This document shows, in pieces, positions 15,205-64,000 of a stretch of 64,000 bases of DNA (its first letter is position 1; every line of letters begins with the position of its first letter). This stretch comes from a virus. Location of the stretch: positions 1 to 64,000 of IMG/VR virus record IMGVR_UViG_3300045970_000065. One strand, written 5' to 3'. The translations under genes were made by a program, and so were the position numbers. The notes under the pieces are model-generated. The model worked only from the letters and a program-made list of their open reading frames with translations, was not told the origin of the DNA and did not search any database.

Positions 15205-15449
15205 TGACGGAATCGCAGAAGGAATATGAAGCGTTTATTGAGTATCGTAAGCGATGTAGAGCAATTGACACTATTATTAAGTGTGCTAAAAATATTAACG
15301 AAATAATGCCCGAAGAAGTTACTATTTTTATTAAAAAGGATAATCTTGATTGGTTAAATAGTTTGCATAAAGATGCCATAGCGCATGGTGGTTACATTAA
15401 CATGGATGCATTTAAGGAGTATTGTAGCGATGGCAATAACCCTACATGA
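15204..15449 (+). CDS. Hypothetical protein
   Basis: ORF track; ATG after GGAGGTAGAAAGTA. Confidence 0.55.
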   Translation: MTESQKEYEAFIEYRKRCRAIDTIIKCAKNINEIMPEEVTIFIKKDNLDWLNSLHKDAIAHGGYINMDAFKEYCSDGNNPT

Positions 15450-16993: not shown

Positions 16994-17497
16994 CGAATGC
17001 ATGCTAGTTCTTTTGCCTTAAGAGGTCATCAAATGCAATTCCAAGATGAATTCTCAGGTCATCCTGATACTGAAATGCTTGGCATAGCACTTAAGACTAA
17101 ATATGAAGGTCATGATATCTATGCTTATCCTGACCCTACAGGGCGTTCTAGGAAGTCATCAGCATCAACAGGTATTACTGACTTTAAAATACTAGAGAAT
17201 ATGGGTATCACTTGTCTAGCACGTTCAGGATCGCCACCTATTATTGACTCAGTAGCAGCCGTCAATAAGAAACTTATGACAGCAGCTGGTGATGTAGCTA
17301 TGTACATACATCCTCGATGTACTAAGCTTATTCAATCAATGGAACGTACTAAGTGGCTCGATAATAACATGGATACAGCAACAATCGACAAAACAGAAAA
17401 TATGGAACATCCCTCTGATGGTGTCCGTTATGCCACAGAATATCTGTACCCAATTCAAAATACATTCAGTAGAGGTAAACGTGGATTCGCCTTCTAA
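16994..17497 (+). CDS. terL: Terminase large subunit, exon 2 (nuclease domain)
   Basis: In frame with track ORF 16991..17497; YAYPDPTGRSR, IHPRCTKLIQS, HPSDGVRYATEY typical of the terminase C-terminal RNase-H-like nuclease. Confidence 0.8.
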   Translation, partial: RMHASSFALRGHQMQFQDEFSGHPDTEMLGIALKTKYEGHDIYAYPDPTGRSRKSSASTGITDFKILENMGITCLARSGSPPIIDSVAAVNKKLMTAAGDVAMYIHPRCTKLIQSMERTKWLDNNMDTATIDKTENMEHPSDGVRYATEYLYPIQNTFSRGKRGFAF

Positions 17498-40500: not shown

Positions 40501-43500
40501 GGTATTGGTGGAATATTTACTAGTCTTGCTAGTGTTATTATGGGTACTAGTAAGAATCCTGGTTTTGTTGAACGTATGCTGTTTGGCAGAATGGGTGTAA
40601 TGAAATCACTATCTTTGATAGGTCTTGTAGCGCAATATGCAGGTGTCTTTGATTCTGTCGTTGGTGAAGCAACTACTATGAACGGTGCGGCGCTAACTAC
40701 AGCATTATTTGCTGGTCTATGGAAAGGCGATAAGATAGTAGAAGGCTTTAAGACTAAGATAATTAATCCTATTATTCTTGCAGTAAAGGGATTACTTAGC
40801 AAGATGAATGCACTACTTGGTGGCCAGAGTCTTCCTGTAGCTTTGTTCAGTCCAACTGGACCTAATATGAGTACGTTTGCTGCTTTAAGTGCGATATACA
40901 ATACAGGTCTTACGTTAGTAGCGGATAAAATACGACCGTATGCCGCTAAAGTTTCAGCATCTATTATGGGTGCATTATTTGGTAGCAATGCGCAATTAAA
41001 TCGGCAAATGATGTGGTGGGAGATTAAAGACGCTTTCACAGAAGTGTGGGCATCTATAAAAGGAATGTTCGCAGGTAGTGGTGGAGGAGGTTTATTTAGT
41101 AGTGTACGAACACAATTGACAACCTTTTTCACTTGGGCAGGTGGATTGTTTACAAAATTTACATCGTTTATAGGTAACCTCTTTGGCACTCAAGGATTAC
41201 TTCCTAGAATCTTTATGGGGATAGGTGGTAAGACTGCTGTTAAAGCTGCTATTTATGCAGGTATTGCAGCAGCGGTATTAGCAGTAGGTAGTGTTGCTTT
41301 CGGTGCTGAAGATAAGCCTGTTAAGACACATGCAGATACAGTCAACGAACGTCTAGATAAAGCAAAAGAGAAGAAGAACTATTGGAGACCTTATCCTATA
41401 AATCAGGATGTAGAAACATGGGTTAGTAACAATCCTATTAAGACTGCACTTGCATTTGCAACAGCTGCTCTTGGTGCGTTCGTTGCATTATCTTCAAAGG
41501 CCAGAGCTGCTATTACTAACGCTTTTGCCAATGGCTTACCTTCCGCTAATATGCAAAATTTTGCTAAAGGTTTCGCTGTCGTTGGATCAATGGCTGCCGC
41601 TTTCTTCTTAGGAAATTTCCTTGCCAAATTTACAGGTAATGAAGATATGGCAATGGAATTTGGTCTGATGGCTACAATGCTTGTTGGTTCCATGGCTAGC
41701 TCAATATCGAAAGCCGTTCCAGGTCTTCTCAAAAGTGTTGGAGGATTTCTTGCGACTGAACTTCTAATCGGAACTCTCAGTATTCCTGTATGGATCGCTG
41801 GTACATTAGCCGCGATAGCTGCAGCAGGTGTCGGTGCTCTTGGAATATTCTTGTTCGGGAAAGAAGGTGACTTTGGTAAGGATTTCAAGAATTTAACTAA
41901 GCGTGTAAAGAACTGGGTTACACAAACAAATGAAAAGGATATTAAGTCTAGTATTACTGGACTCACACAAGGTCAGAATAAATCTGCTAGAGAGTTAGGG
42001 ATTGATTTAGAGTTCGATGTGAGTACCATAGATACTAAAAAATTGTCTAAAGTTGAAAAAGAAAAACTTACGACTCTTGAGACCGAATTCGGAAAAGTGA
42101 TTGACTCGGCTAAATTTGAGAAGATAATTAAAGGGCGATTAGAAGGTGCAACACTTATCGCTATTGAATCAAAATATGATGAACTTAAGAAGTATGTTGA
42201 TTTCTTAGGTAAGTCTGATTTCAATTTTATAGATAGTCTTAAATCTACTGATACTATGAATCCTACTTCTAAAGCGGATAGATTCAGTTATTGGCTTAAA
42301 GAAATACGTCTTAAACGATCTTATAATCTTCAAATGGATGAGTTGGAATTACAACGGTCAGGTATCGAGCGTTATCATCAGCTGAACAGTCTTGAGAGTT
42401 CAGAGAAGTATGCTGAAAAGATGGCTAGAATAAACATGAAGATTTCCGATCTAATGAAACAAAAAGACACCGACTATAGCGCATACAAGAGAGGTACTAC
42501 TCCGCAAGAACAACGTGTAGCATATAAAGCTTTTAGCTTAAAAGATGCTACTATGCCTTCGAGTATGGCTGATAATTATGATAAACAGTCAAGACGTGTA
42601 GCTACTCTTCGTTATGAACGTAATCAATCTGAGCAATTAGGCAACAACTTCGCCGAACTTCCTCAACGTAATCTTAAAGAAATAGATAAAGATCTTACTG
42701 AAGCAATGGATAGCTGGGAACGTCTAGCAGATCGTGTAAATACATATCAACTACATCTAAATGACGTAGATATATTTACAAAGAGTGTTGCTAATATGGC
42801 TTCTACTTTCAAAGAAGCTGGTGTAGCGTTTGAAGAAAACGCTGTATTTGCCAAAGATGGTGCAGCATATGAGCGTATTAAAATGCTACAAGGTGAAGCC
42901 ACAGTTCTTGCTAGTGATCTTAAAAATGCTAAATCTATAGCTGATAAACAAACCATTTTCTGGAGACAGGAAGTAATAACAAATGAAATTGTGAGAATTA
43001 AATTAGAAGCGGATACAACTAGTCCGTTTAGAAAACAATTTTTACTTGCAGATATTACTGGTGCAGCAGATATGCTTGAAGGTATTTCAAAGAAGACTTT
43101 TGAGACTCTTTCAGATGATGCATCCAAGGCACTCTTTGATCAGGTAACAAAAATCAGAGTTGCTCAGAAAGCGTTAGAAATTCTTCCTGAGCAAGATCCT
43201 AATAAGATTCTTACAGCGCAAGCGGATATTCTTGAAAAGGTTGTTAAACTTGAGAAAGAATTAACGGGGCTTCGTAAGAAACGTTTGGAATCTGCAGCAG
43301 GAAGTGGTTATTTTGATTCTAGACAAGCAACTCCTGAAGATGTTTATAATGGACGTTTAGGGAGTCTCTTTGGTAGTCAACCTGAAGCTACGGATAAACA
43401 ACGTGCTGATGCTATTGCCCAAAAAGAAATCGAAAGAAAAATATGGGTGGAAGCTGGTAGAAAACAATTTGTTTATAATGAAGGCAAACCTGAGACGATT

Positions 43501-46500
43501 CAAGCCGACTACAAAGCTGCTGTGGATAAGATTCAGCAAGATAAATGGACTGCAAATAATCTACTATATTCTGGATTACGAGATCAGAAAAATGGTTATG
43601 GCCTTAAAGAACTAGCAGCAAATGTTGGCACTGATTTGCCTGCAATGATTCGTACATATGGTACACAGATTGATGTGCTTACAGAGAAACTAATTGAGAT
43701 GAATAAGAAGAAGAATGATATAGACTTCTTCTTGAGTCAGAATATGTTTACTGAGGCAAATACTAATGCTAAATATCTCGAGCAATTTGCGAAAGATGCT
43801 AATAGACAAGCTGATACATTATCGAACGTGGTTAGTACGGCCACATCTTTTAATGGTAACTCCATAAGTGAAGCTAATATAGAGAATATGGATCCTAAAA
43901 TACTCTCAGGGCTTTATGAGCAAGTACACAATTTTAATATTGCGTTTGATAGAGAATTAGGATCTGGTGGAGCTGCTATTGCAGATTATCTAAAGAAACG
44001 AAAGGCAATAAGTAAAAAGATATCTGATGCTGATTATGCAGCTACGAATACAGAGGACCCTAATACTAGATACCGCCTATTAACCGACATGGGATTGGCA
44101 CCTAATCAAATAGCTCGAATGGAACCACTTGTAAGAACTAATATAGCTCAATTACAAAAGGTTGCAAAGAAGGCTATCGATGATAGAGCTAAAGGCCACT
44201 GGAGAGGTGGCGATAAGAAATATGACGATGTTGTAAGAGCGCCTGGCGATGCGATGCGTGCGTATAGTATTGAAGAGAAAGCTACTATACCTTCTCTCCA
44301 GCAACAAAATCTTGTCGATGCCGGTTTAACAATGAGGGAAACTCTTAGAGTTTCTGATAATCTAAAAGAACAATTCATTGAGGTTACTTCAGCTAAGCAA
44401 CGAATGGATGATGCCTTTGCAGAAAATCCTACGAATGTTGATCCGACTGAAAAGGCAAACGTATATCTTCGTTATGAACAAGTATTTAATCGTGTCAAGG
44501 ACAGTGTAAAGACATTCATGGATAAGTTGGCAGACTTGAATGATACACTTGGAATAAATATCTCTGATAAGAATTTCATGGGATTAGGAGCGATTGGAGA
44601 TAAACTTGTCGATATTGTATACACTGTCAAATCACGTATGGCAGAACTTCTTAAAGATAAGCCTAAAGAACTCTTTGAGACTATGACTAAGTTCAAAGTA
44701 TTAGGCACACGTTTTCAATTCATTGAAGACCTATCTACACTGCTGGCTGATGCTATGACTCAAAGTGTTGCTAAAGGGTTTGATAATGCTGGCAAATATA
44801 TGGCAGATTTTGATTTTACAGAATTCTCTAAACTTGATTCTGGTTTCCAAAAGGAATTGAAAGGCAGATCAACCAATTCAGAGATTGTGGATAAAGTAAA
44901 GAATTTGAATATGGGTGAAGCAGATAAGCAGAATCCTGTATGGCAACAGATATTGGAAGCTTATAAGCATCCTATGGATTACGCTAATGAAAAATATATA
45001 GCAGGTCTTGCACAGTCTTCTGAGTTTCTTCAGAAATATCTTGCAGATGCTGTACCAATGCAAGAGCAATTGGTGAATAGTAATAACCTCCTACGAGGAG
45101 CTATTGACTGGTTGACTCAGACTATTACTAAATCGTTCCCAACACTATTTGATCAATCTGATACGCTGACTGATGGTCAGGGTTACGCTACAGGTGGTCG
45201 TGTAAGTGGTAGAGGTACAGGTACTTCAGATTCTATTAATGCTAAGTTGTCTAATGGTGAGTTTGTAGTCAATGCTGATTCTACTAAGAAGTATCGACCA
45301 CTTATAGATGCCATTAATAGTGGGAATATCACTGGATTTGCAGGAGGTCGCAATCCATATTCCTTGGATAAACCTGTAGGGAGCATGAGCTCTAAATACA
45401 ATCGTTGGGATAATAGTACGTCTAGAAAACTCTTAGAACAGAATATATTTGAAGAGGCGCGTACAACTTTAGCTGAATTGAAAGGTTTGGATATCAGTAA
45501 ACTTAAGGGTGCGGCTTTTGATAATTATGCAACTAAGATATCGACCTTCCAACAGGATCTGGTAACAGCACTTAATGGTAATTTTCATGAAATAGCTGGT
45601 TTTAATGATTATGGTTTTGATCCGAGTACTAAATCAATTTACGGTGCATCGTTAAAAGATTCAATAAATGCCAAGAATACATTGATGTCTAATTTTCATG
45701 AAATAGGTCATTTTATAGACCAAACAGCTAAGCAGACTACTTTCATAGAGAAGAATCCTAATCCGAGTAGTTGGACAACTAAACAGAAATCTAATTTTGA
45801 TAAATTAACCAATCTGAATAGTAGAAATACATTCGATGGAATATTTAAGAGTGAGAGTACAGCTAATCGATTTGCAGAAGATCTTTATTCAGCTATACAT
45901 CCTGAAATACCTCTTGATAAATCTTTCCTGGGTAATTCCTTCGATACCTACGAGGCTGTATTTAGACAGCAATCTCCGAATGCCACTGCAGCAGATATTC
46001 TAGCTGGCGAACAGTTGCAGCGAAAGAGTCTTTATCGTGTAGCTGAATTATCTCGTATACCTGATGCTAATATCGTAAGTCGCATGAGTATGGATAAAGT
46101 TAGTGAGCATTATAAAGATATTTTCAGTGGTGAACGTATGCAACACTCTGATACAATATTCGGCCAAGGTAAATTGGCGGATGATGTGTTAGATAATTAT
46201 ATTAAGACAGGCACTTTGAATGATGCTAACGTAATGTCCTTAGATCTTAGACCTAAGAATTTAACTGAAGACTTCTCTAAGTTGTTGAGACAAGAAGTTG
46301 CGCCTAATGCTTATGACTATCTCACAGAAGGCAGCGTTGGTAAGTTACCGCGCGCAATAAGAAATGCAATGGTGGATGTATCAAATAGTGATATTGTAAA
46401 TAAACTGTACGATGCAAAGGGTAAACTCACAGCTTCTTCTGTGTTCTCTAGTATGGATGATGGTAATCTTTTTGAATTAGGAAAAGGTTATCCGTTTGGA

Positions 46501-49029
46501 ACTTCATCTATAGATACAAGAGATCTTGGAATACGTTTCAATAAAGATAATTATTATAGAGTATTGGGCGATGAAGGCCTTTTCGATTATTTTAAGAATA
46601 AAGGAAGTTTATTACCAGGGCCTTATTTCGATGGAACAAACTCTGTACACTATAGCAAAGGTCGTCCGTTAGGTTATTATGATCAGTCCAAATTTCCGGC
46701 GTATGCTGATGTTGGAAGTGGTTACGGTAAAATATTAGAACTTGATGATATTAAGGAAAAGTGGCAGGGCGTTACTAAAGAAGGTACAGGATATCAAGGA
46801 CATATAAATAGAGCTAGTAGTAAATCTGTTAATATTCCTTTAATTGGTGGCGGAAAGCACGAATTGATTCAAATGCCTAGAGATTTTGCTAAAGTAGAAG
46901 AAATAGGAAATTTAATCAAATCGGGTGACTTGAATAATCTACCAGATATTCTGGAATTTTTAGGTGGCGATCCTAACGCTGGTAGAGATATATACAAGCA
47001 ATTTGATGTATTTAAAGGAAAGGCTAGAGATATACTTAAGCAAATAAGTGTTAAAGGCGTGCTATCTGGTGCTAAAAATATTGCAACAGGTGTCGCCGGT
47101 GGATTAGGTGCAGATACCTTTGTTCGTAATAACCTAAATCTTACAGGCACAGGTAACGCTGCTGAAGAAATAGTTGCTTCCACAGATAATCCGTATTCTG
47201 TTTTAAATTCGGCCTTTGTAGCCTTTAGCAAGACTGTCGATATCATTAATAAAGAATTGATAGCTGCAGTGGCTGGAGGAGGATCAGCTACTCTTATCTC
47301 TAAAATTCCCAACCCGTACGTAAAGATAGCCGCCATTCTGGGGTCGCTGAGCGTTGCGGCATGGCAGGGGTTCCAACCGCAGAAAAAGGCCACAGGTGGG
47401 GTACTTAGTGGCCCAGGAACGGGCACTTCTGACTCAATACCTGCAATGCTCTCGAATGGTGAATTCGTTGTCAATGCTAAGTCTACATCACGTTATCGTG
47501 ATCTTTTGCATGCTATTAACAAAGGAGAAATAGCAGGATTCGCTACTGGTGGACTTAATAGTAATATTCAGAACTTCCAGAATCTTGGAACTACATTTTC
47601 TGACATTGACAGACGTGGTGCATCTTCGCGTAAAGCAGTACAGCTTAAAGTTCAAGCTTTAGGGCTGTCCATAGATATGTCTCAATTAAACGAGATGAAT
47701 GACAAGTATCTGAAGATGTTTAATAATTATTTAGAACAGATTAAAGAATATGAAATAGCTGCTGCATCTGCTTCAGCTGAAAATAAAGCGATCATGAATG
47801 TTAAACTTAGAGAATTCTATGATACGATCGATAAGATGAAGGATGCATCTTTTGCAAATAAAGCCGGTGAAGCTTTCAGTTCTAATTTTCATAGTAATTT
47901 TAAGACAGGTATGTTAAACGCTATGAAGACAGGCGATTGGTCTGGTTTTGCAAAAGGTGTTAGCAACAATTTTATGGATCAAATGAATTCTACGTTTATA
48001 GATGGTCTTATGGAACCAATAACAGGTCCAAATGGATTTATGGGCAAGATGATGAAAGGTCTAGGTGAGAGTGTAAGTAAGACTGGTGCAGGTTTAGGTG
48101 GTATATTAGCTACTCCTGGTAATGCAGCAGTAGACATGACAATGATGCCTAGTACAACCTTCTTTGGAACATGCGTAGATCGCTTTAGTCTTGCGGTAAG
48201 TAATTTCGGAATGAAGTTTGATTTAAGTAAACCAGGAGAACGAGGTACAGGGTTATCAGGTACAAGCGCACCTTTACCTGGATCTGATGGTACTTTTGCA
48301 CCTCAATTAGATACTTTATCGAGTGGTGGAATTACACTTGGTAATGCTACTAATTCAGATCCTTTTGGAACTCCTGCTCCCATTGTTGATAAATCAAATC
48401 TACAAGCCACTATTAATCAAACCTCTACAATGGGTGATTTGTTTAATAAATCTAATTTAACATATTTAGCTGGTGCAGGAATGATTGTTGCAGCTCTTGC
48501 TGGCGGTATGAGTGGTGGTAAAATGGATTGGATTGCAGCTGGGCTAGCTATTGCGGGGGCTGTAGTTAGTGTTGTAGGGGCTGGAGTTAACGCTGCTAAT
48601 AGTAGTAGTGCGAGTAGTGGTAGTAGTAAAGTTGGACAAGGTTTTATGGGTCCAACAACTTCAGCTAGAGTTGGTGCAGCTGAAGGTGGTCTTCTTTCGG
48701 GACCAGGTACAGGCACCTCTGACTCAATTCTTGCCAGATTATCTAATGGTGAATTTGTAGTGAATGCTGGAGCTACAGCGAAAAATATTGGATTATTAAC
48801 TCGGATTAATTCGGGTACTAAATTCGCCGCAGGTGGTCTTGCAGGAACACTAGATATGCCTTTAAATAATTCTTCATTAACTAAAGGCGCTACTACTGCT
48901 TCTAATCAGTCTACGATTAATATCAATGTTACTGGTGATATCAGCCGTCAAACTCGTTCTGAAATAATGAAGATGATTCCTAATATATCTTCAGGCGTCA
49001 ATATGTATAACAAGGAACACGCATACTAA
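37510..49029 (+). CDS. Tape measure protein, 3839 aa, multidomain
   Basis: N-terminal TMP core (GAQALFQLGQGLASGTLRGQELNSVLEQAPRIAQAISDELGVTLGQLRSMGEAGKITS). Cluster of hydrophobic helices in the second quarter, long coiled coils, HEIGH (45697..45711), three GTGTSDSI..LSNGEFVVNA modules. Confidence 0.9.
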   Translation: MSIGIEFETRSDKAQKDLNAINNSLKNIENTTGKASAALGNAFRALGAMATIGGTALYLKNVSTQFSELSNKIAVVTGRTNALVKTQKELYAIATKTGSSLSSVAETFGSFGRSTKNMDIPLRKLLTVTETIQKALTLTGSNNESGAQALFQLGQGLASGTLRGQELNSVLEQAPRIAQAISDELGVTLGQLRSMGEAGKITSKVVFSAMLNQTKKINEEFKDINFTISQTMGSLSDAVKIFVSELDKGLGISSGLGNTFFKMANHIRLASDGAAEMGYNFKESFKTMKANVALIAGPMLSIIRKLGSQLLTAMPTHIFHRTLIKDWNAGLAALDRSTGGWLQKWKLFKFSDIIRIESPIEVALRKLRRLSNPNKQVGGFLNVKFDSKRLHDYSRLLGDLADATGKNSSTLGVTLTTMMLKVDHAFRNVFHYFSRNKFTFTFNKGNIEGFLMSLSEMTRGITGVHRGWLDFKTHIVTIFAPAIYSLGIAFKDVSKAIPTYLDYLKKSAIEFYDIFIRNFKGIAAELIRVSTVWRSAFVSMLMAFYEFEKSIWDKTGLSDYLKWELKLTKELLSKITNAFVTSDFGSAAIRVFKNTVKAIEKLYTDLHKVFDKKMHRVNFSSVADSFDDFFNNLKHVNDKTKGISKIFRVLEERLVLARHRIVDAFSSLYSDLQKALNKPFRAIDFGDVLASLTMFLNRIYHAFDKNKPFTDSLSSIKKFAKGVINEFYTIWDKVIGHSYWTDTIESIKKTSRDLASSVGPVLASFGDKVIGVFRKVHAQVDSILTRVKNKLADVFDKNNIVLPTFKIDKKLDFKTNFNNIIKDFKNSFVIISHELPEIFKVALASMAAMVVMMLVPPGKLKIALLSEFLSTVAVSGTIVAEAFGKALTGGSLVYTVGRAFGRLVGIIVGSVIYDIPFILNSVLGLIAGFGRGLAEELTMQWGSFGKMIQKVIKAAFSVSDVVGGMATGTLGLLGAYLFGTSVLKVLSALGIYKKEIKGIGGIFTSLASVIMGTSKNPGFVERMLFGRMGVMKSLSLIGLVAQYAGVFDSVVGEATTMNGAALTTALFAGLWKGDKIVEGFKTKIINPIILAVKGLLSKMNALLGGQSLPVALFSPTGPNMSTFAALSAIYNTGLTLVADKIRPYAAKVSASIMGALFGSNAQLNRQMMWWEIKDAFTEVWASIKGMFAGSGGGGLFSSVRTQLTTFFTWAGGLFTKFTSFIGNLFGTQGLLPRIFMGIGGKTAVKAAIYAGIAAAVLAVGSVAFGAEDKPVKTHADTVNERLDKAKEKKNYWRPYPINQDVETWVSNNPIKTALAFATAALGAFVALSSKARAAITNAFANGLPSANMQNFAKGFAVVGSMAAAFFLGNFLAKFTGNEDMAMEFGLMATMLVGSMASSISKAVPGLLKSVGGFLATELLIGTLSIPVWIAGTLAAIAAAGVGALGIFLFGKEGDFGKDFKNLTKRVKNWVTQTNEKDIKSSITGLTQGQNKSARELGIDLEFDVSTIDTKKLSKVEKEKLTTLETEFGKVIDSAKFEKIIKGRLEGATLIAIESKYDELKKYVDFLGKSDFNFIDSLKSTDTMNPTSKADRFSYWLKEIRLKRSYNLQMDELELQRSGIERYHQLNSLESSEKYAEKMARINMKISDLMKQKDTDYSAYKRGTTPQEQRVAYKAFSLKDATMPSSMADNYDKQSRRVATLRYERNQSEQLGNNFAELPQRNLKEIDKDLTEAMDSWERLADRVNTYQLHLNDVDIFTKSVANMASTFKEAGVAFEENAVFAKDGAAYERIKMLQGEATVLASDLKNAKSIADKQTIFWRQEVITNEIVRIKLEADTTSPFRKQFLLADITGAADMLEGISKKTFETLSDDASKALFDQVTKIRVAQKALEILPEQDPNKILTAQADILEKVVKLEKELTGLRKKRLESAAGSGYFDSRQATPEDVYNGRLGSLFGSQPEATDKQRADAIAQKEIERKIWVEAGRKQFVYNEGKPETIQADYKAAVDKIQQDKWTANNLLYSGLRDQKNGYGLKELAANVGTDLPAMIRTYGTQIDVLTEKLIEMNKKKNDIDFFLSQNMFTEANTNAKYLEQFAKDANRQADTLSNVVSTATSFNGNSISEANIENMDPKILSGLYEQVHNFNIAFDRELGSGGAAIADYLKKRKAISKKISDADYAATNTEDPNTRYRLLTDMGLAPNQIARMEPLVRTNIAQLQKVAKKAIDDRAKGHWRGGDKKYDDVVRAPGDAMRAYSIEEKATIPSLQQQNLVDAGLTMRETLRVSDNLKEQFIEVTSAKQRMDDAFAENPTNVDPTEKANVYLRYEQVFNRVKDSVKTFMDKLADLNDTLGINISDKNFMGLGAIGDKLVDIVYTVKSRMAELLKDKPKELFETMTKFKVLGTRFQFIEDLSTLLADAMTQSVAKGFDNAGKYMADFDFTEFSKLDSGFQKELKGRSTNSEIVDKVKNLNMGEADKQNPVWQQILEAYKHPMDYANEKYIAGLAQSSEFLQKYLADAVPMQEQLVNSNNLLRGAIDWLTQTITKSFPTLFDQSDTLTDGQGYATGGRVSGRGTGTSDSINAKLSNGEFVVNADSTKKYRPLIDAINSGNITGFAGGRNPYSLDKPVGSMSSKYNRWDNSTSRKLLEQNIFEEARTTLAELKGLDISKLKGAAFDNYATKISTFQQDLVTALNGNFHEIAGFNDYGFDPSTKSIYGASLKDSINAKNTLMSNFHEIGHFIDQTAKQTTFIEKNPNPSSWTTKQKSNFDKLTNLNSRNTFDGIFKSESTANRFAEDLYSAIHPEIPLDKSFLGNSFDTYEAVFRQQSPNATAADILAGEQLQRKSLYRVAELSRIPDANIVSRMSMDKVSEHYKDIFSGERMQHSDTIFGQGKLADDVLDNYIKTGTLNDANVMSLDLRPKNLTEDFSKLLRQEVAPNAYDYLTEGSVGKLPRAIRNAMVDVSNSDIVNKLYDAKGKLTASSVFSSMDDGNLFELGKGYPFGTSSIDTRDLGIRFNKDNYYRVLGDEGLFDYFKNKGSLLPGPYFDGTNSVHYSKGRPLGYYDQSKFPAYADVGSGYGKILELDDIKEKWQGVTKEGTGYQGHINRASSKSVNIPLIGGGKHELIQMPRDFAKVEEIGNLIKSGDLNNLPDILEFLGGDPNAGRDIYKQFDVFKGKARDILKQISVKGVLSGAKNIATGVAGGLGADTFVRNNLNLTGTGNAAEEIVASTDNPYSVLNSAFVAFSKTVDIINKELIAAVAGGGSATLISKIPNPYVKIAAILGSLSVAAWQGFQPQKKATGGVLSGPGTGTSDSIPAMLSNGEFVVNAKSTSRYRDLLHAINKGEIAGFATGGLNSNIQNFQNLGTTFSDIDRRGASSRKAVQLKVQALGLSIDMSQLNEMNDKYLKMFNNYLEQIKEYEIAAASASAENKAIMNVKLREFYDTIDKMKDASFANKAGEAFSSNFHSNFKTGMLNAMKTGDWSGFAKGVSNNFMDQMNSTFIDGLMEPITGPNGFMGKMMKGLGESVSKTGAGLGGILATPGNAAVDMTMMPSTTFFGTCVDRFSLAVSNFGMKFDLSKPGERGTGLSGTSAPLPGSDGTFAPQLDTLSSGGITLGNATNSDPFGTPAPIVDKSNLQATINQTSTMGDLFNKSNLTYLAGAGMIVAALAGGMSGGKMDWIAAGLAIAGAVVSVVGAGVNAANSSSASSGSSKVGQGFMGPTTSARVGAAEGGLLSGPGTGTSDSILARLSNGEFVVNAGATAKNIGLLTRINSGTKFAAGGLAGTLDMPLNNSSLTKGATTASNQSTININVTGDISRQTRSEIMKMIPNISSGVNMYNKEHAY

Positions 49030-50853: not shown

Positions 50854-53800
50854 ATGTCAAGTTTGGCAATGTTTGCAATTATAATCTCGATAGCCTCAAC
50901 AGCATATTCAATAGCATCTAGTATGGATGCCGCGCGTAAAGCCAAGAATGCGAAAGCAGATGCCGACGCTAATGCAGATAGAGCAAAAGGTTTTCAATTT
51001 GTTGTAGAAGGTAGTTCTGAACCAGTACCAATAGTATTCGGTAGAAACAAAATAGGAGGCATACGAGTTCATAATGCTGTTGTGAGTAATTATTACAGTG
51101 TACCTAAAACGCCAGTATTGCCAGAATTAGTGGTAATGATACCTAAAGAAACTGGGAGTTGTTGGAGATTAAGACATTCTGATCCAACTTGGCTTAGTGG
51201 TGCTTGGGAACCTATAACTACAACAATTCCACCTAAGAGACCTTGTTGGAAATACAATTCTGCGACAAATACTTGGAGCGGTCCAGCTGTTCAATCAGGT
51301 ATAAATTTTCTTTATTGTTTTCCACAAGTAGATAGTAATGGAAACGATACAGCTCTTGCTCCACCAAATTTGCCTGAATTGAAAATGGAATATCCGGCAG
51401 CTTATGACACAAGCCTTAATAACGCTTATTATGGAGACCATTGGGGTTGGAAAAAGGCTTATTTGTTTACTCAAACAATACTAACGCAAGGCACACTTAA
51501 TGATGTAATCACGGCTGACGTCAATGATCAGAACTACAATTCGGATCTTTATAATGTAGGCGGAGGAGTATGGCCTAATCCGATGTCTTTCAGTGGTCTG
51601 ATGCTACAAGTACATAAGAAAGGCGGTAATGCTAATGCCTTAATGACTAAAAACGATGCTACAAGAAGTGATTCAAGATTCTCAGGTTGTGCATATGCTA
51701 CTCAATTCTTCGGTCTTAATAGAGAAGATCCACAATTTAGCGGTATACCTGAGGTTAAGTATTATGTTGAAGGAAATAATCTGAGTAATATAACGAATGG
51801 AAGGCTCATTCGAGCAACTGATGGAATGTATTCAAATAATGCTATAAGAGTACTTTTAGAGTATCTGATTAATACTACTTTCGGTGTATCCATTTCACCT
51901 AACGATTTAGATCTTGTTTCCTTTGAAGAAGCAATAAGCATAGCAGAGAGAATAATACAAACAACTAACATATCTTCAGGTTCTTTCTGGTCTTATAAGT
52001 CTGTGGATAGAGTGATTCATTTATTCGAAACCAATCTTGTGCTATCATCGAAAGACACGCATAGATCTAATATTAATAAAATACTCTCTTGTATGGGATC
52101 ATGCGTAGATTTGATATGGTCTAACGGACAATATAAAATTAAGTTAGTATGTCCTGAGATATATGATACAACTAAGAATCACACTTTTAAGAAATATTCT
52201 CTAGTACAAATAAAAGGTGATATTGGTGGTGTTGTCTATAAATCTCTTTTTGATAACGAGACTTCTTTGCCTTCGCTAACATCTAGCCGATGGACTAAAG
52301 CTGCTGTTGCTCTGATAACAGATTCAGATCTGCTTCTAGATACTCAAGTAACAACTACTTGGCCAAATATAGATAACAAGCTAAATTACGCTACCGTACG
52401 TTTTCTTAATGAAGATATGAACTTCATGGAAGATACAGCTTTTTGGCCAGATAGAGAAGGTAATGCAACTGTCTATAAAGCTTATTTAGCACAAGATTGT
52501 GATATTCTTCTAGAAGATGATTTCTTCGCTGATGGTGTAACTTTAAAGCAGCATGCTAGAGCTTTGGCTGAGCAGAAGGTTAGATTCTCAAGAAACTTAT
52601 TGTCATATACTTTTAGTACTGCTGGTAAATATTACTTCCTAGAACCAGGCGATCTTATCGAGTTCTCCAGTGAGACATTTAAAATAGGTTGGCCGACACC
52701 TATTACAATGAAGATAACAAAAGTAGATGGAGAAACAGGCGGTAAACTTAATTTTACGACTAGTATATTCAGACCCGATCTCTTCGCATGGAATATAGAT
52801 GATCACGTACTTGAAGATATGATGTATGAGACTACAGGTCTTATGAACCGTGAAGTTCGAAATTTGAAGTTTATTGCTAATCCTATAAACGATACTCTAA
52901 ATTCAGATTATTCACTCGTATGGAATCCTCCTAGTGACGACGGAGATGATAATAAATCGGAAGTATGCATTGATCGTTATGAAATATTCTATACGAAACT
53001 AATACGTGAAAAGGTAGATGCCAACACGCCTCTGACGTTTCTAGGTTCGTCTCCAGGAGGTTCCTATTCTGGAGATATGAGCACGTCTTGTTCTTTTAAG
53101 ATAATAGGATTAACTGATGAATATACTTATTTTGTTTCCACAGTAACACCTGATGGTCGTAGAACACCTATGCTTAATTGGGCTTGGGTTCGAGGAAGTA
53201 CGGTTGTACGAATAGCTGCTCCAACAGATCTTGTTGTCGTTGAAATTGGAATTACAGGTATATTGAGAGCAACTTGGAACTATATTGGCCCTGGAACCAT
53301 AACTTATAATCTGAGTTGTGACGGAGCAATAGTAGGTACCACTACCGCGAAAACATATGATTTTACAGGTCTTACTAAAGGCAATCATTCAATAGCCATA
53401 CAAGCTGAAAATATAAATAATGAAACTTCAGAATGGCTTATTAGTGAAAGAAATCTCGTAACCTTAGGTGATTTGCACCCTGCGACTGTAACTGGCTTTC
53501 ATGTACACAGAGACGCCATAAGTGGAAAGGGTGTGTCTTTAGGTTGGACTGCTAACAATGTAAATGATCATGTGTCACATTATCATATCAAGATCTGTGC
53601 AGCAAAAGACTGGGATTTCACTGCAGACGAGTTTATCGCTAATGGTATAACAAAAATAATGCCTGATATAACAAGTACAGGTCAATGGACTTATAGCATT
53701 AAAGCATCTACGGCAGAAGGTATAGAGAGCGTTATTGCTGCTGAGGCAGGTTTTTATTTGGCGCCTGTAAGTAAACCTTATAATATTTTTATGACAGCGA

Positions 53801-56094
53801 AAACACGAGCAATAAGTTCTAAAGTTTCGTTGAACCCATTTGATGAAGTTTTCTTTTCAGTACGGCTTCGTGTTTCGAGTACACCTAAATTTGAAGATGG
53901 ACTTACAGTTTCAGTTACTGGTGATACTTATGAAACAGCAAATCTTAATGTCGTGGATGTTCGTTATTATTGGGCAAGAACTGTAGATATCTTTGGCGGC
54001 TTTTCAGAGTGGGTACCTTCTGAAAGCAGCATAGGTTTAGCAGGTATAACTAAGAATGACCCGAAAGCAGTTCTTGAAGCGATGATAATTAATCAAACTG
54101 ATTCACAAATAGTCCAAGATTACCTAGATGGTAAGAAATCTTTTGCTGAGGCTTTTGATAAGACATTTACAGATAAATTAATAGGCTTAGGTCTGTCTAA
54201 TACTAATGGTGAGAAGGTAGGTCTAACCATATCTTGGGATAATCCTGATGTTAAAGATTCAGGCAGTGTTGTAGTACAAGCTAATAAATTTAAAATTCAA
54301 GATGGTATTAATCAAAAGCCTATCTTTCTATCCGGTCCTATTGGTCCTGAGATTCTTGTAAACGGTAAGAAGGTACAGCCTATGGGAATAGGGATAAATG
54401 GTGATCTATTTGTCAATGGTTCCATTTCTGCCTTAGCCTTAGGTGTTCAAACTTTAACAGTAGGACTACAACTTGTACTGGCTGGTGGTGCACAAATATC
54501 TTGGGAAAATATTGATACAGGTACGGTCGTAGGTGATATAACGATAGCTAGAGGTAGTTGGGATGGTGGTCATATATATTACAATAAGGGAAATATTGTA
54601 ACATATAATGGGCAGACCCTTATTTGTCTTATCGCGCATCAATCACATACCGAACAACCACCTACAAGCGTTGGTGTATTAAATGTATATTGGTCTATAA
54701 TGGGTTCTCAAACTGGTGACTATACTTCATTTATCTTCGCTACTGGTAATTCTCCTCCTGATTATACAGCTACGACAACTGCAGCTTTACCCTCATTGTG
54801 GTATGATGTTCCAAGTGCAAGTTGGACACTCCCTGTATGGATGAGTAAAGGTATTGCTAATGGAATGACTAACATTGTAACAACTTGGGGCCAACCTGTC
54901 AAAATTACAGGACCTACAGGTTACGGTTCTCCGGGTACTAGTCAGACAGCTTATTATGCATTAGGTGCATTATGGCGTTCAACTGAAGGCTTTGGTACCG
55001 GTGTGCCTGCTGTGCCACAAGGCTACTATTTATGGATGAAATTCAAAAGTTCCGATGGCTCATGGGGCGATGAATTTAGAGTATCAGGCGAAAAAGGTGA
55101 AAGAGGAATACCTGGTTCTTCAGATTTAGTAGGACCTTATAAAGATATTCTAACGACGTTAATTAATGATAAAGAGATAGCTACATGTAACTTCTATGGT
55201 AACTCTTATCAGACTGGCGCCAAAGGTACTACTGGTGATAATATGATCATTGGTGAATCAACAGGCGGCGTTAGGGAAAATAGGATGCGTTTTAAAGAGG
55301 GTACAGTTACTAAAGCATTTATAGGTACACCCTTAAATGGTGTATATGGCGGTGATATTCAAGCGTTATCGACAATCTTTGCTAAAGCCGCGACTTCGGG
55401 TGTGGGAATAGCTATCGGTGGTTTTGCAGACTATTATAATTCAGGTTCAGTAGGTGTTTATGGCGAGAGTTTATACGGTATTGGTGTTAGAGGATGCGGT
55501 CAAAACTATTATGACTTTTATGCGGTAAGTTCAATTATAACAGGAAGAAGTTGGGTAGGTAGTAATAGTTCATTAAATTTTGGAATGACGGGAGGTGTTC
55601 GTAGCGGTACTTACGGACCTTTTACTGGATCGCATGATGGCTTGGTATTACATGAATTTGAAGCTCAGCCAGGAGATATTATAGTAGATATTATGACATT
55701 AAGCTACACAGATATAAGCAATACATTAAGCTTGGTGGAATTAAGTTGTAATATAAAGCAGAAAAGTGTAGTAGGTGTATTTCTAACTAAAAGAGATTTA
55801 AGTCCAGAGATGCCAATTGCAGGTCTCTGTTATCCATGGACAGAGGATTACAGTCTTACATACGCCCATGTATGCTTTAATGCAGTAGGTGAAGGAATGG
55901 TAGCTGTTTGCAAAGACGGCGGTAATATCGAAGCCGGTGATTATATATGTTCTTCAGCGCGTCCTGGTAAGGGTATGAAACAAGATGACGATATTCTCCA
56001 TAACTATACCGTAGCAAAAGCACGTACAGCAATAATTTGGGAAGAAAACGATGATGACGTCTATTTATTACCCTGTACATATCACTGTGGTTAA
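50854..56094 (+). CDS. Tail tip / host-specificity protein (J-like), 1746 aa
   Basis: EPVPIVFGRNKIGGIRV block near the N-terminus. Several about 90-aa Ig/FN3-like segments (LVWNPPSDDG, TWNYIGPG, LGWTANN). Short collagen-like GEKGERGIPG. Last large gene of the tail module. Confidence 0.7.
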   Translation: MSSLAMFAIIISIASTAYSIASSMDAARKAKNAKADADANADRAKGFQFVVEGSSEPVPIVFGRNKIGGIRVHNAVVSNYYSVPKTPVLPELVVMIPKETGSCWRLRHSDPTWLSGAWEPITTTIPPKRPCWKYNSATNTWSGPAVQSGINFLYCFPQVDSNGNDTALAPPNLPELKMEYPAAYDTSLNNAYYGDHWGWKKAYLFTQTILTQGTLNDVITADVNDQNYNSDLYNVGGGVWPNPMSFSGLMLQVHKKGGNANALMTKNDATRSDSRFSGCAYATQFFGLNREDPQFSGIPEVKYYVEGNNLSNITNGRLIRATDGMYSNNAIRVLLEYLINTTFGVSISPNDLDLVSFEEAISIAERIIQTTNISSGSFWSYKSVDRVIHLFETNLVLSSKDTHRSNINKILSCMGSCVDLIWSNGQYKIKLVCPEIYDTTKNHTFKKYSLVQIKGDIGGVVYKSLFDNETSLPSLTSSRWTKAAVALITDSDLLLDTQVTTTWPNIDNKLNYATVRFLNEDMNFMEDTAFWPDREGNATVYKAYLAQDCDILLEDDFFADGVTLKQHARALAEQKVRFSRNLLSYTFSTAGKYYFLEPGDLIEFSSETFKIGWPTPITMKITKVDGETGGKLNFTTSIFRPDLFAWNIDDHVLEDMMYETTGLMNREVRNLKFIANPINDTLNSDYSLVWNPPSDDGDDNKSEVCIDRYEIFYTKLIREKVDANTPLTFLGSSPGGSYSGDMSTSCSFKIIGLTDEYTYFVSTVTPDGRRTPMLNWAWVRGSTVVRIAAPTDLVVVEIGITGILRATWNYIGPGTITYNLSCDGAIVGTTTAKTYDFTGLTKGNHSIAIQAENINNETSEWLISERNLVTLGDLHPATVTGFHVHRDAISGKGVSLGWTANNVNDHVSHYHIKICAAKDWDFTADEFIANGITKIMPDITSTGQWTYSIKASTAEGIESVIAAEAGFYLAPVSKPYNIFMTAKTRAISSKVSLNPFDEVFFSVRLRVSSTPKFEDGLTVSVTGDTYETANLNVVDVRYYWARTVDIFGGFSEWVPSESSIGLAGITKNDPKAVLEAMIINQTDSQIVQDYLDGKKSFAEAFDKTFTDKLIGLGLSNTNGEKVGLTISWDNPDVKDSGSVVVQANKFKIQDGINQKPIFLSGPIGPEILVNGKKVQPMGIGINGDLFVNGSISALALGVQTLTVGLQLVLAGGAQISWENIDTGTVVGDITIARGSWDGGHIYYNKGNIVTYNGQTLICLIAHQSHTEQPPTSVGVLNVYWSIMGSQTGDYTSFIFATGNSPPDYTATTTAALPSLWYDVPSASWTLPVWMSKGIANGMTNIVTTWGQPVKITGPTGYGSPGTSQTAYYALGALWRSTEGFGTGVPAVPQGYYLWMKFKSSDGSWGDEFRVSGEKGERGIPGSSDLVGPYKDILTTLINDKEIATCNFYGNSYQTGAKGTTGDNMIIGESTGGVRENRMRFKEGTVTKAFIGTPLNGVYGGDIQALSTIFAKAATSGVGIAIGGFADYYNSGSVGVYGESLYGIGVRGCGQNYYDFYAVSSIITGRSWVGSNSSLNFGMTGGVRSGTYGPFTGSHDGLVLHEFEAQPGDIIVDIMTLSYTDISNTLSLVELSCNIKQKSVVGVFLTKRDLSPEMPIAGLCYPWTEDYSLTYAHVCFNAVGEGMVAVCKDGGNIEAGDYICSSARPGKGMKQDDDILHNYTVAKARTAIIWEENDDDVYLLPCTYHCG

Positions 56095-61129: not shown

Positions 61130-62705
61130 ATGATCAACCGCTTGAAGAGAAATGTAATTCGGAGATTAAGTGATGAAGTCTCAGCACATAATCCCATAAA
61201 ATTTCTTAACAAGCTGAATATCGACGAGTACTTTCCCGTAGTAATCGCAACTCTCTACTTATACACACGTATGAAAAGAGGGACTAATAAAAGTGTTTAT
61301 CTAACCGAGGTAGCTTCAGCAATCGGTCATAGTATCCGTAATAAATATAAACTCAAAAGAGATTCAGCTTTAGCTATTAAAGCGGGTGCTTTCTTATTGT
61401 ACACTTTTGAACAGGCAGGTATGGTTCAGATAGTGCTAGGAAAAGGATCCAATGGACACGGTTCGTATATCCTTAAGATTAATGATGATCCTGCAATATG
61501 CCTATTATGGAATTCACTACCAGTACGATTAATTGAAAAGTTGCCTTCCGAGAAACCGTATGCTCCATGGGTATCGACACGTCATAAGGAAACAGGATTA
61601 TCGCTTGTAAAGACAGGTAATAAGGATGTGTTAGATAAAATAACACCTGCTACACATCCTATCTTGTTTAATGTAATTAATCGAAAGCTCGAGGTTGGTT
61701 GGACGGTTAATGCAGAGTTATATCATGTACATGTATGGGCACTTAAAGAAAAGACTGAAGCATTCGCTGAAATCTGGGAACAACAGAACCCAGAAGCGAA
61801 AGTGACTAAACTCAGGGAGGCTAAAGCAATTGGAGACATTGCTAAAAGATTTATTGACAAAACGTTCTTCCACCTTTATTATTTCGACTTTAGGGGACGA
61901 ATCTATCCTGCCACGGCCTACCTTCATGAGCAAGGAAGTGATCTTGCAAGGGGACTCTTGCTACGTAGTGACAGTAAAGCCATTGGTAGAGAAGGTTTCT
62001 TTTGGCTTTGTGTGTCAATCGCGTCAAACTGGGGAGGTTCTTGTGGAAGGCGAGATGGAGCTAAAACTGACAAAATACCGCTCAAAGACAGATTCCAATG
62101 GGTCCTAGACAATGAAGATATATTCTTGGACTATGCATCAAACCCAAAAGAGTATCAAAACTGGATGCAAGCTGACAAGCCTTGGCAATTCTTAGCTGCA
62201 TGTATTGAGCTAAGAAAGCTAAGGGAATGGCAAACAAATTTTACATTTGATGGTAGTGGTCCAGATTATAGTAACTATAATTATGAGTCGCATCTAGAAG
62301 TCTACATTGACGGTAGTAATAATGGCTCACAACACTTATCAGCATTGACTCGTGATGAAGTAACAGCCCCGCATGTAAATCTAGTACCATCAGATTTACC
62401 AGGTGATCTGTATAAGTATATTGCAGATCACGTTTGGGCGCGACTTGAAAAAGCCTATAATGACATGGCACCATTCGAAAGAGAACTTTGTGAGACATTC
62501 ATCGATAATATAATTGACCTTAAACGGCAGATATATGAAGCTGAGCCGCAGAGTGAAGAACGCAAATGTCTGATTGATAAAATCCAAAAGGAAAAGAATT
62601 TAAATATCTTCCTTCAAGACAAGGCTTGTGTTGTTTACTGGCTACGTGTAACTGATCCAAAAGAAAGAAGAAAGATTTGCAAGAGAAATGTTATGACACT
62701 TCCGT
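61130..62705 (+). CDS. T7-like single-subunit RNA polymerase, exon 1
   Basis: YYFDFRGRIYPATAYLHEQGSDLARGLL (cf T7 MDWRGRVYAVSMFNPQGNDMTKGLL); motif A VYIDGSNNGSQHLSALTRDE (Asp 62309..62311); start of motif B RRKICKRNVMTLP. The ORF then reads into the intron and stops at 62722. Confidence 0.9.
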
Positions 62706-63425
62706 TAACTAGGCGGAAGTAAAATCGGGTGAATTCAGGGAACATCCATTCACCGTGGACAATCCTGAGCCAAGCTTACGCGGAAATGCGTCTGAAGGTG
62801 CAACGACTATTATGTAGGGAGGTAGTCCTCTCGAAGCGCCCGACACCGTTAGGTGATGATATAGTCTGGTCTGCATAGTGATATGCAGCTGTCAATAATT
62901 CAAATGAGGAGTTAACATTGAATTGGTTTGAATATTTCGAATATGAAGATGGTGAATTGATTAGGTTACACAGTAATAATCAACACAAACATGTAGGTTC
63001 TGAGAATAGTTGTGGTTATGTTCAATTTGAACATCAAGGCAGAACATATATGTTGCACAGGATTATTTGGGAGATGCATTATGGTGCAATATCGAAAGAT
63101 ACTCAAATAGATCATATTGATAGAAATCCGTATAATAATCGAATAGAGAATTTGAGAATATGTACTCAAAATCAGAATCAAATAAATGCCAGAATACCTA
63201 AGAATAATACAAGCGGTTTTAAAGGTGTTCTGAAAACACCTAATGGTAAATTTCAAGCAAGACTGGGCTATAATGGCGTTAAGTTATATTTAGGGTTATT
63301 TGATACAGCTGAAGCAGCTAATGAAAAAGTCATCGCGAAAACGAGAGAATTGTACGGTGAATTTGCAATTCTCTAATTTGAATTATCGACAGAGTACACA
63401 GTAACGAAGTGTGCTGAACAACACG
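62706..63425 (+). mobile_element. Group I intron in the RNAP gene (720 nt) carrying an HNH-AP2 ORF
   Basis: Exon end CTTCCGT (62699..62705) pairs with intron GCGGAAG (62713..62719), with a U-G at the splice site. Intron ends in G (63425). Splicing gives ...VMTLP-Y-GGTAYGLGQQQ, restoring motif B. Core blocks shared with the terL intron. Confidence 0.8.
62918..63376 (+). CDS. Intron-encoded HNH homing endonuclease with AP2 DNA-binding domain
   Basis: TTG start after GAGGAGTTAACA; HNH IDHIDRNPYNNRIENLRICTQNQN; AP2-like SGFKGVLKTPNGKFQARLGYNGVKLYLGLFDTAEAA. Confidence 0.85.
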   Translation: MNWFEYFEYEDGELIRLHSNNQHKHVGSENSCGYVQFEHQGRTYMLHRIIWEMHYGAISKDTQIDHIDRNPYNNRIENLRICTQNQNQINARIPKNNTSGFKGVLKTPNGKFQARLGYNGVKLYLGLFDTAEAANEKVIAKTRELYGEFAIL

Positions 63426-64000
63426 ATGGAGGTACAGCTTATGGATTGGGGCAACAACAGATAGATGATGCTCGTAAGCACGGAATTACACTATTACTCT
63501 ACCTTGAGCACAAATGGGGTGCCTTTCTTGGTAGAGAAATCTATGAAGATTGCAGAACGTCTCTCGAACGACCTATGCGTCTGCTCAAGATTTTTGAAGA
63601 CGCCGGTAAGAAGGCCGAGGCAGAAGGTAGATTCTTATCGTGGACAGTCCCCCTCACGCATTTCCCGGTCGTTCAAAATTATACTGAAGGCACCGTCAAA
63701 AAGATTTGGGTACAATATGGACCGCCGGAAGGTTGTAGACTTCCAAATCACTATTACACCAATACACTGCAACTAGCTGTATGTTTCATTGAGGATGTAG
63801 TGCCTTCTAAGAGAAAACAATCTCAAGGAGCCAGTCCTAATGCAATACATAGTTTGGATGCCGCTCATCTCACAATAACGTGCGATCAGGCACCATTCGA
63901 TGTGACAACGATTCACGATTCATTCGGATGCCTACTGGCAGATATGCCGGTACTCTACAAACTCGTCAGAGAGACTTTTGTTCAACTGTATTCTACTGAT
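63426..64000 (+). CDS. T7-like RNA polymerase, exon 2 (3' partial, runs off the window)
   Basis: Frame 2 open from 63426 to the window end: YGGTAYGLGQQQ ... SPNAIHSLDAAHL (cf PNFVHSQDGSHL) ... TTIHDSFGC (motif C). Track ORF 63465..63776 is in the wrong frame. Confidence 0.9.

Follow-up and report, generated by a model that had tools for sequence, protein, structure and literature searches.

A mobile group I intron very probably interrupts the Tyr526 codon of a T7-type RNA polymerase (RNAP) gene at positions 62706..63425 of the viral DNA analysed here, a stretch of 64,000 nucleotides (the window; positions 1 to 64,000 of IMG/VR record IMGVR_UViG_3300045970_000065). Judged from sequence comparison, this intron would belong to a lineage that is tied to its insertion site, and a second group I intron in the terL gene of the same genome would be separate and independently acquired, a reading that we hold with the same high confidence.

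A megablast search of 50,697 deposited phage records returned no near-identical DNA for the RNAP or terL regions, and relatives were therefore sought by protein and profile searches. The nearest cultured phages by protein are the roseophages DSS3_PM1 and DSS3_VP1 (Naomviridae), with amino acid identities of 34% for RNAP and 52–53% for terL. IMG/VR contributed 40 related RNAP loci, to which the window RNAP is 50–76% identical at the amino acid level, and 22 terL loci (L numbers below denote individual loci). The distant cultured kin and the IMG/VR relatives together place the window in an uncultured clade related to Naomviridae.

The 720-nt intron lies on the plus strand inside a T7-type single-subunit RNAP gene. 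Exon 1 (61130..62705, plus strand) encodes residues 1–525 and the first base of the Tyr526 codon. Exon 2 (63426..64000, plus strand), which runs off the window end, supplies the last two bases of that codon and continues from GGTAYGLGQQQ through IHDSFG. The Pfam family PF00940 (RNA_pol) is called on both exons (2e-36 and 5.3e-20, respectively). Joining t(62705) to at(63426-63427) forms the Tyr526 codon, and the spliced protein reads KRNVMTLP-Y-GGTAYGLGQQQ. In a phmmer search against PDB sequences, the spliced RNAP is colinear with T7 RNAP (1aro_P) on both sides of the junction, and the alignment covers T7 residues 405–578 and 609–837, the latter with exon 2. Counted along this colinear alignment, Tyr526 corresponds to T7 Tyr639 in motif B, the key tyrosine of the active site, and K518 and R519 align with K631 and R632 of T7. 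The polymerase motifs occur in order: DFRGR, IDGS (motif A), KRNVMTLPYG (motif B) and IHDSFG (motif C).

Both splice sites at this insertion position, designated site C, are fixed by uninterrupted alleles and by the same-site introns of L151, L159 and L160. In 20 uninterrupted RNAP alleles from related viral contigs, the DNA across the same junction follows the pattern A..G.AA..T.ATGAC..T.CC.T|A.GG.GG.AC. The uninterrupted allele of L124, ...ATGACACTTCCGT|ATGG..., matches the ligated exons of the window almost base for base. The predicted ligated junction is ...GACACUUCCGU|AUGGAGGUAC... (RNA ...CUUCCGU|AUGGAGG...); AGAGAAATGTTATGACACTTCCGTATGGAGGTACAGCTTATGG is the intron-less version of the insertion site, of which L124 is a natural variant. 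At the 5´ splice site, the exon sequence CUUCCGU (62699-62705) pairs with the internal guide GCGGAAG (62713-62719) to form the 7-bp P1 helix (62699..62719, plus strand), with the U62705.G62713 pair at the splice site itself. The 3´ end of the intron is the terminal G63425. Splicing at G63428 or G63429 was considered as well and was rejected, since it would create TGA or TAG.

A preliminary description of this region had already read the guide pairing with its U-G pair, the terminal G and the group I identity from the letters, and had proposed that splicing restores a Tyr codon in a split motif B. The sequence bears out the first two of these points, and the colinearity with T7 RNAP and the 20 uninterrupted alleles bear out the last. 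The group I identity is confirmed by the Rfam covariance model RF00028, which matches 62625-62888 with 80.3 bits (E 8.4e-19, model positions 1–253). A second match in the window, at 16203-16480 (74.9 bits, E 3.5e-17), corresponds to the terL intron; both exceed the curated gathering score of 50 bits.

The reading frame of exon 1 meets TAA at 62720-62722, directly after P1 and 15 nt into the insert. Owing to this position, ribosomes would not run through the ribozyme core. An in-frame stop at this place would also be found if the gene were in pieces, with the insert as a free-standing endonuclease gene and the RNAP made as two assembling polypeptides, and split single-subunit-type RNAPs reportedly exist, N4 RNAPII being a heterodimer of this type. 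Nevertheless, we regard such an arrangement as extremely unlikely. The endonuclease ORF is flanked by a complete, covariation-supported ribozyme core, and L160 carries a 256-nt intron with no ORF at the identical position. The break in the RNAP cuts through a single codon in the midst of motif B. Moreover, neither a ribosome-binding site nor a start codon in frame with exon 2 is found close to the junction: the ATG that begins at 63426 is in another frame, and not until 63575-63577, about 150 nt into the exon, does an ATG occur in frame.

The self-splicing intron is the favoured reading, and its structure was examined on alignment A2, which comprises 14 intron cores: the two of the window, that of the DSS3_VP1 terL gene and eleven from related RNAP genes. 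The ribozyme core of the RNAP intron (62725..62888, plus strand), delineated with RNAalifold and explicit pair counts on these 14 introns, is built from P3 (62725-62730/62838-62843), P4 (62735-62740/62763-62768), P5 (62745-62748/62756-62759), P6 (from 62769), P7 (62805-62810/62861-62866), P7.2 (62817-62822/62827-62832), P8 (62844-62847/62852-62855) and P9 (62871-62877/62882-62888), all on the plus strand. Immediately downstream, the plus-strand segments CUGUCAAUAAUUCAAAU (62889..62905) and AUUUGAAUUAUCGACAG (63376..63392) pair with one mismatch over 17 positions to form P9.1. The endonuclease ORF is therefore enclosed in the P9.1 loop, and the 3´ strand of the stem overlaps the last base of the endonuclease stop codon. 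P9.1 was recovered by ViennaRNA on a construct of the RNAP intron with the ORF removed, and an equivalent stem is present in the intron of L160 and in the DSS3_VP1 terL intron. The P9.2 hairpin (63394-63414, plus strand; GUACAC, loop AGUAACGAA, GUGUGC), assigned from sequence and folding, is followed on the same strand by the 3´ tail UGAACAACACG, which was read from the sequence and extends to the terminal G.

Covariation supports this structure. RNAalifold on A2 recovers P1, P3, P4, P5, P8 and P9, with compensatory change in 24 of the 40 predicted pairs. An explicit pair count, for which partners slid by 1–3 columns served as controls, adds P6 and the P7 pseudoknot. Over 42 pairs in 14 introns, 98.5% of the cells are paired compared with 31–45% in the slid controls, and the covariation score is 0.574 compared with at most 0.105. 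Both sides have changed in a compensatory manner in 23/42 pairs. P7 (GACUAU/AUAGUC) is invariant and complementary at all six of its pairs. P1, which was read from the sequence, covaries with the exon at five insertion sites, with compensatory change in six of its seven pairs. The RNAP intron thus has a complete catalytic core, composed of P1, P3–P9, the P3/P7 pseudoknot, P7.2, P9.1 and P9.2. It probably belongs to the common phage IA-type lineage.

Certain parts of the periphery vary. The intron of L160 folds into the textbook layout of P1, P3–P9, P7.1, P7.2, P9.1 and P9.2. Two hairpins occupy the P7.1/P7.2 region in L159, L160 and the terL introns of the window and DSS3_VP1. The window RNAP intron has a single hairpin (P7.2, 62817-62832) between P7 and P3´, and its P7.1 is degenerate or missing. 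The missing P7.1, the weak P10 (about 3 bp) and a TTG start codon of the endonuclease where the L161 orthologue has ATG could be signs of a decaying or non-functional intron, in which case the RNAP would be a pseudogene, or splicing would need a protein cofactor encoded elsewhere; there are phage introns for which splicing occurs in vivo and fails in vitro (PMC11878797). This is very unlikely, given that P7, the terminal G and every invariant position of the core are intact, that both RNAP exons are open and conserved including IHDSFG, that the HNH motif of the endonuclease is preserved, and that L151 has the same form lacking P7.1.

The intron encodes a predicted HNH homing endonuclease of 152 residues (62918..63376, plus strand). 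Its TTG start codon is preceded by the Shine-Dalgarno sequence GAGGAG (62906..62911, plus strand) at a distance of 6 nt. The HNH_3 domain (PF13392, 5.8e-18) occupies residues 44–88, and the N-terminal half of the protein weakly matches I-HmuI, the intron endonuclease of SPO1 (1u3e; 0.006). The ORF had earlier been labelled HNH-AP2. The HNH part of this label stands. For the AP2 part, residues 84–151 marginally match five AP2/ERF chains of the PDB in phmmer (E 0.0067–0.16), and Pfam makes no AP2 call on the isolated C-terminal 63 residues even at E ≤ 10; we regard this half of the protein as a putative AP2-like DNA-binding domain. Introns at the same site encode related proteins, with identities of 66% to the ORF of L159 and 57% to that of L151.

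Insertion sites in related IMG/VR loci were mapped with tblastn segments and by reading of the junctions. The RNAP gene of the clade is interrupted at five positions at least, all in catalytic motifs. Site A follows His248 just upstream of DFRGR (L152, L158 and L159), and site A´ splits this motif as DFR|GR (L113). Site B lies in DG|S of motif A (L157, L158 and L160). Within motif B, site C´ is located at KR|NVMT (L149, L150, L104 and L116), and site C, in the Tyr codon equivalent to T7 Tyr639, is occupied in the window, L151, L159, L160 and L161. The RNAP genes of L158, L159 and L160 each hold two introns. No ORF is found in the site-C intron of L160 or in the site-C´ intron of L104. The gene is uninterrupted in both DSS3 Naomviridae phages and in about 25 full-length IMG/VR relatives, and the occupation of site C is patchy, with at least 25 relatives empty at this position. 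This presence/absence pattern of the RNAP intron is typical of homing. The cargo differs among the sites: HNH ORFs with an AP2-like C-terminal half are found at sites C and C´, ORFs of the NUMOD4-HNH-HTH (I-HmuI-like) kind, as judged by eye from translations, at sites A, A´ and B, and Endo VII-type ORFs in the terL introns. A hairpin with a UAACGA loop, followed by a tail of the GAAC/GAAG type, recurs throughout the RNAP sites inspected (C, C´, A and B) as well as in both terL introns. The RNAP intron very probably belongs to a lineage tied to site C, which other phages of the clade carry together with an orthologous ORF and which has lost the ORF in L160.

The second intron of the genome interrupts terL. 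Exon 1 (15385..16278, plus strand; Terminase_6N, 2e-5), the true start codon of which is uncertain, ends with ...CIDFNVG. Exon 2 (16994..17497, plus strand) begins with RMHASSFALRGHQ and is colinear with uninterrupted terL homologues, and the spliced junction reads DFNVG|RMHASSFALRGHQ; ATAGACTTCAACGTCGGTCGAATGCATGCT is the intron-less sequence of the insertion site. No intron interrupts terL in DSS3_PM1 or in EBPR siphovirus 1, whose terL genes are 53–57% identical in amino acids to that of the window. In DSS3_VP1, an intron (Rfam, 93.9 bits) follows DFNVG| at exactly the same position, and across its 3´ junction, GAACACAAACG|AUC..., the protein reads DFNVG|IMASVIGAVRGNQ. Because this junction sits at the identical site, the terL intron of the window is assigned to 16279..16993 (715 nt, plus strand). 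Splicing at G16984 or G16999 was rejected, since the DSS3_VP1 junction and the conserved GAACA...G tail place it at G16993. On the plus strand, the intron forms P1 (CGUCGGU 16272-16278/GCUGACG 16287-16293, from the sequence), P7 (16365-16370/16453-16458), P9 (16463-16480), P9.2 (16964-16980) and the tail (16981-16993). It encodes a 158-residue Endo VII-type endonuclease (16496..16972, plus strand; PF02945 Endonuclease_7, 5.2e-15) that is 52% identical to the ORF of the DSS3_VP1 intron. L185 carries an intron at the same terL site, with a core 77% identical and an orthologous Endo VII ORF.

The preliminary description regarded the two introns of the window as homologous, pointing to six shared sequence blocks, common 3´ ends and ORFs of different families. 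Each of these observations is upheld. Both introns contain all six blocks, and the order of the blocks does not differ between them; both 3´ ends consist of a hairpin with the UAACGA loop followed by GAACA...G; and HNH_3 in one ORF and Endonuclease_7 in the other are distinct families. In the pairwise alignment and comparative fold proposed there, covariation is present, and the 42 pairs comprise 31 identical, 10 compensatory, no one-sided and one broken. The blocks common to both introns thus fall in helices that correspond to one another.

Homology of this kind was taken to mean that a single backbone had spread within one genome and swapped its endonuclease cargo, with acquisition on two occasions as the alternative. 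Transposition from terL to RNAP, or in the reverse direction, followed by an exchange of cargo, draws support from the shared blocks and corresponding helices, and from the occurrence of the same backbone family at five or more RNAP sites and in terL across the clade with three endonuclease architectures. This distribution implies that site moves and cargo exchange happened somewhere in the lineage. The identities of the cores argue against such an event in this genome. Computed without P1, the core of the RNAP intron is 79% identical to that of the L151 site-C intron, 75% to the site-C introns of L159 and L160, 73% to the DSS3_VP1 terL intron, 71–72% to the site-C´ introns and 67% to the terL intron of its own genome. 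This core matches 333 cultured-phage records; the best full-length matches, with 67–72% identity, come from td, psbA, DNA polymerase, primase/helicase and terL genes of unrelated phages, and shorter partial matches reach 75–79%. The 67% between the two cores of the window is the level seen against introns of unrelated phages. As cores at 65–80% identity may be partly saturated, there is room for an old intragenomic transposition followed by divergence.

Wider sampling and phylogeny point in the same direction as the identities. A scan of IMG/VR with a core signature returned at least 120 contigs, and among the matches listed, a profile derived from A2 then detected 166 related introns, distributed over 130 loci. 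Ordered by similarity to the RNAP intron, the terL intron of the window ranks 82nd of 165 among the matches listed, in a ranking that could be biased, as both window introns match the signature. In neighbour-joining bootstraps of 146 near-full-length cores (176 columns, 200 replicates), the two introns of the window are sisters in 0/200. The site A and site B clades receive 193/200 and 200/200, respectively. The tree has little resolution with 176 columns, notably for site C, where the exact four-member clade appears in 9/200 and the smallest split that holds all four has six members. No P2 helix is present between P1 and P3 in the RNAP and terL introns of the clade, and an extra P2 hairpin is found in L121, L012 and L005. 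Together with L071, which also has the extra hairpin, these three loci contain the introns nearest to the RNAP intron outside RNAP genes.

For each intron of the window, a closer relative with an orthologous endonuclease occupies the same site in another phage, L151 for RNAP and L185 for terL. Furthermore, the two introns assort independently among relatives. IMGVR_UViG_3300037541_000451 has the site-C RNAP intron (L161) and an uninterrupted terL (L167), and DSS3_VP1 has the terL intron and an uninterrupted RNAP. Spread of one backbone within this genome is consequently very unlikely, and the alternative of two acquisitions, which the preliminary description had mentioned second, is the better reading. 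The RNAP and terL introns were most likely acquired independently of each other, and in the simplest reading of the data each arrived by homing from a related phage. In this reading, both were also drawn from one very widespread family of phage introns, members of which have been re-targeted to new sites and have exchanged ORFs over time.

From what is established for group I introns and HNH homing endonucleases, a likely course of events can be outlined. The RNAP pre-mRNA would self-splice by two guanosine-initiated transesterifications, restoring an uninterrupted RNAP mRNA. In co-infecting relatives, the HNH endonuclease would cut or nick RNAP alleles that lack the intron, near ...ATGACNCTNCCNT|AYGGNGG..., and repair from the intron-bearing copy would spread the intron together with its ORF.

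It is a classical finding that group I introns encoding HNH endonucleases interrupt essential phage genes at conserved motifs, and the classical phage group IA2 introns include those of T4 td, nrdB and nrdD and of the SPO1 and SP82 DNA polymerase genes (I-HmuI). The intron described here resembles them in its Rfam family, in the insertion between P7 and P3´ and in the location of the ORF in a peripheral loop. It also shares with them the insertion in conserved motifs of essential genes, the HNH or other homing endonucleases, and the combination of similar ribozymes with unrelated ORFs; the occurrence of similar introns with divergent ORFs is said to be a long-known phage pattern. The host gene and the insertion site are different. 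Further examples of the IA2 type are the DNA polymerase introns of T7-like phages such as Pf-WMP3 (PMC3428280) and the td intron of pVa5 (PMC5746245).

The terL intron of DSS3_VP1 with its Endo VII-type ORF has been published (PMC8323127). It comes from the same phage lineage and the same intron family as the RNAP intron, and with the terL intron of the window it shares the exact site and an orthologous endonuclease. In contrast to the window, where RNAP is also interrupted, the intron of DSS3_VP1 resides in terL, and the RNAP is uninterrupted in both DSS3 phages. A further parallel is gp210 of PhiPA3, the gene of a multisubunit RNAP beta subunit. Its group I intron encodes an HNH endonuclease that nicks DNA, and this endonuclease has been shown to act against co-infecting relatives by cutting their intron-less RNAP genes (PMC11620839); co-infection competition was run with PhiPA3 and PhiKZ. 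In both cases a group I intron with an HNH ORF interrupts a phage RNAP gene at residues that are highly conserved and critical for catalysis. By analogy, this suggests a possible role of the intron described here in the competition between co-infecting relatives. The RNAP genes of AR9 and of jumbo phages of the MarsHill group contain similar introns, according to the covered part of Table S1 of a 2025 catalogue (PMC11878797). PhiPA3, AR9 and the MarsHill group have multisubunit beta/beta´ enzymes, whereas the RNAP of the window is a T7-type single-subunit enzyme. In the part of the catalogue covered, the host genes are mainly DNA polymerase, terL, RNR and td, and RNAP is represented only by the multisubunit genes of jumbo phages (PMC11878797). 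The portion of the literature covered, which includes part of this catalogue, yielded no case in which a group I intron had been reported from an RNAP of the T7 single-subunit type. The RNAP intron is an ordinary phage parasite in kind with an unusual host gene and site, and its mechanism is not new.

The T7-type single-subunit RNAP joins the phage genes in which group I introns have settled. Annotation is affected as well, since gene callers will show RNAP and terL as two fragments and an ´HNH endonuclease´, and the problem of fragmented genes extends to 14 or more related IMG/VR contigs. The same-site, different-site and ORF-less copies provide a compact natural series for the re-targeting of guide sequences and endonuclease cargo. 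The most interesting by-product is the multi-site pattern in the RNAP gene of the clade. We tentatively suggest, as a somewhat doubtful extension, that this gene is an intron hot spot with at least five sites and at most two occupied per gene, that the intron HNH enzymes may serve as weapons against the intron-less RNAP of co-infecting relatives, and that splicing may gate the timing of RNAP, downstream of a possible virion RNAP-like protein. A candidate for a virion-carried RNAP-like protein is encoded at 27568..32271; the second RNAP-like domain (30568-32268) has no match in a phmmer search of the PDB. Elsewhere in the window, a PurA-like ORF that might have a PurZ role matches ordinary adenylosuccinate synthetases only.

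The T7-type RNAP gene of this clade is interrupted at no fewer than five distinct positions, every one of which lies within the catalytic motifs. Site A, located upstream of DFRGR, is occupied in the related IMG/VR loci L152, L158 and L159, and site A' (DFR|GR) carries an intron in L113. Introns at site B, which splits motif A (DG|S), were observed in L157, L158 and L160. Further downstream, L149, L150, L104 and L116 are interrupted at site C' (KR|NVMT), and L151, L159, L160 and L161 at site C, the codon equivalent to Tyr639. Some clade members carry two introns in one RNAP gene. Judged by eye, the ORFs at sites A, A' and B have an I-HmuI-like appearance with a NUMOD4-HNH-HTH arrangement; those at sites C and C' encode an HNH with an AP2-like half. 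Natural mini-introns that contain no ORF were found at site C of L160 (1674..1929 of that locus, 256 nt) and at site C' of L104 (about 431..683, about 250 nt). Both are consistent with loss of the endonuclease during the homing cycle and provide handy minimal ribozymes.

The sequence UAACGA is present in the P9.2 loop at all RNAP sites examined and in both terL introns. In the window this loop is located at 63400..63408 in the RNAP intron and at 16968..16976 in the terL intron, where the UAA in it is the stop codon of the endonuclease; UAACGA also occurs in the terL intron of the cultured roseophage DSS3_VP1 and in the introns of L149, L150, L157, L158, L159 and L160. This loop sequence is similar to the AACGAC found in the J6/7-P7 5´ strand (62802..62807), and it may take part in a tertiary contact or pair in an alternative way. 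In the fold of an artificial construct from which the ORF body was removed, the Shine-Dalgarno GAGGAG (62906..62911) of the RNAP intron is paired with UUCUC (about 63369..63373), which extends P9.1. The UUCUC strand lies at the 3´ end of the endonuclease's own ORF. With low confidence, this modeled extension might keep the precursor's ribosome-binding site hidden. The start codon of the endonuclease is TTG in the window, compared with ATG in the L161 orthologue. The exon-1 frame of RNAP meets a stop 15 nt into the intron (62706..62722), directly after P1; that of terL remains open for 165 nt (16279..16443), traversing P3-P7 and reaching into P8 before the TGA at 16441-16443.

An additional intron of the same family is located at 541..751 of L183, about 750 nt upstream of the start of the terL match (residue 139), which suggests that terL has another insertion site or that the adjoining gene carries an intron. 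At the window start, 3..137 in the frame of ORF 39..1430 encodes an intein's C-terminal end (...VYDLTMEGPNHNFIANGFISHN|S...; Pfam Intein_splicing, 23 bits, the match being cut by the window start). This end is joined to the C-terminal barrel of a ribonucleotide reductase large subunit (Ribonuc_red_lgC, 2.8e-9). Together with the two introns, this intein end brings the predicted self-splicing elements of the genome to at least three.

In the structural module, a 1567-aa protein (27568..32271) has a Phage_Mu_F head-protein domain at residues 146-250 and an RNA_pol PF00940 match at residues 1414-1506 (1.7e-10). The protein is a candidate for a second RNAP of the single-subunit type, one associated with the virion; a phmmer search of its RNAP-like part against the PDB returned no match. 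Two very large ORFs encode 3839 aa (37510..49029) and 1746 aa (50854..56094), the latter with a CBM_5_12 carbohydrate-binding module. A short PurA-like adenylosuccinate synthetase homologue of 352 aa is encoded at 10024..11082 (Pfam 1.5e-43). Short PurA-like phage genes can be PurZ, which is linked to 2-aminoadenine DNA. The PDB matches of the 352-aa protein are ordinary PurA enzymes. In the Naomviridae, the cultured relatives, dU replaces dT in the DNA (PMC8323127).
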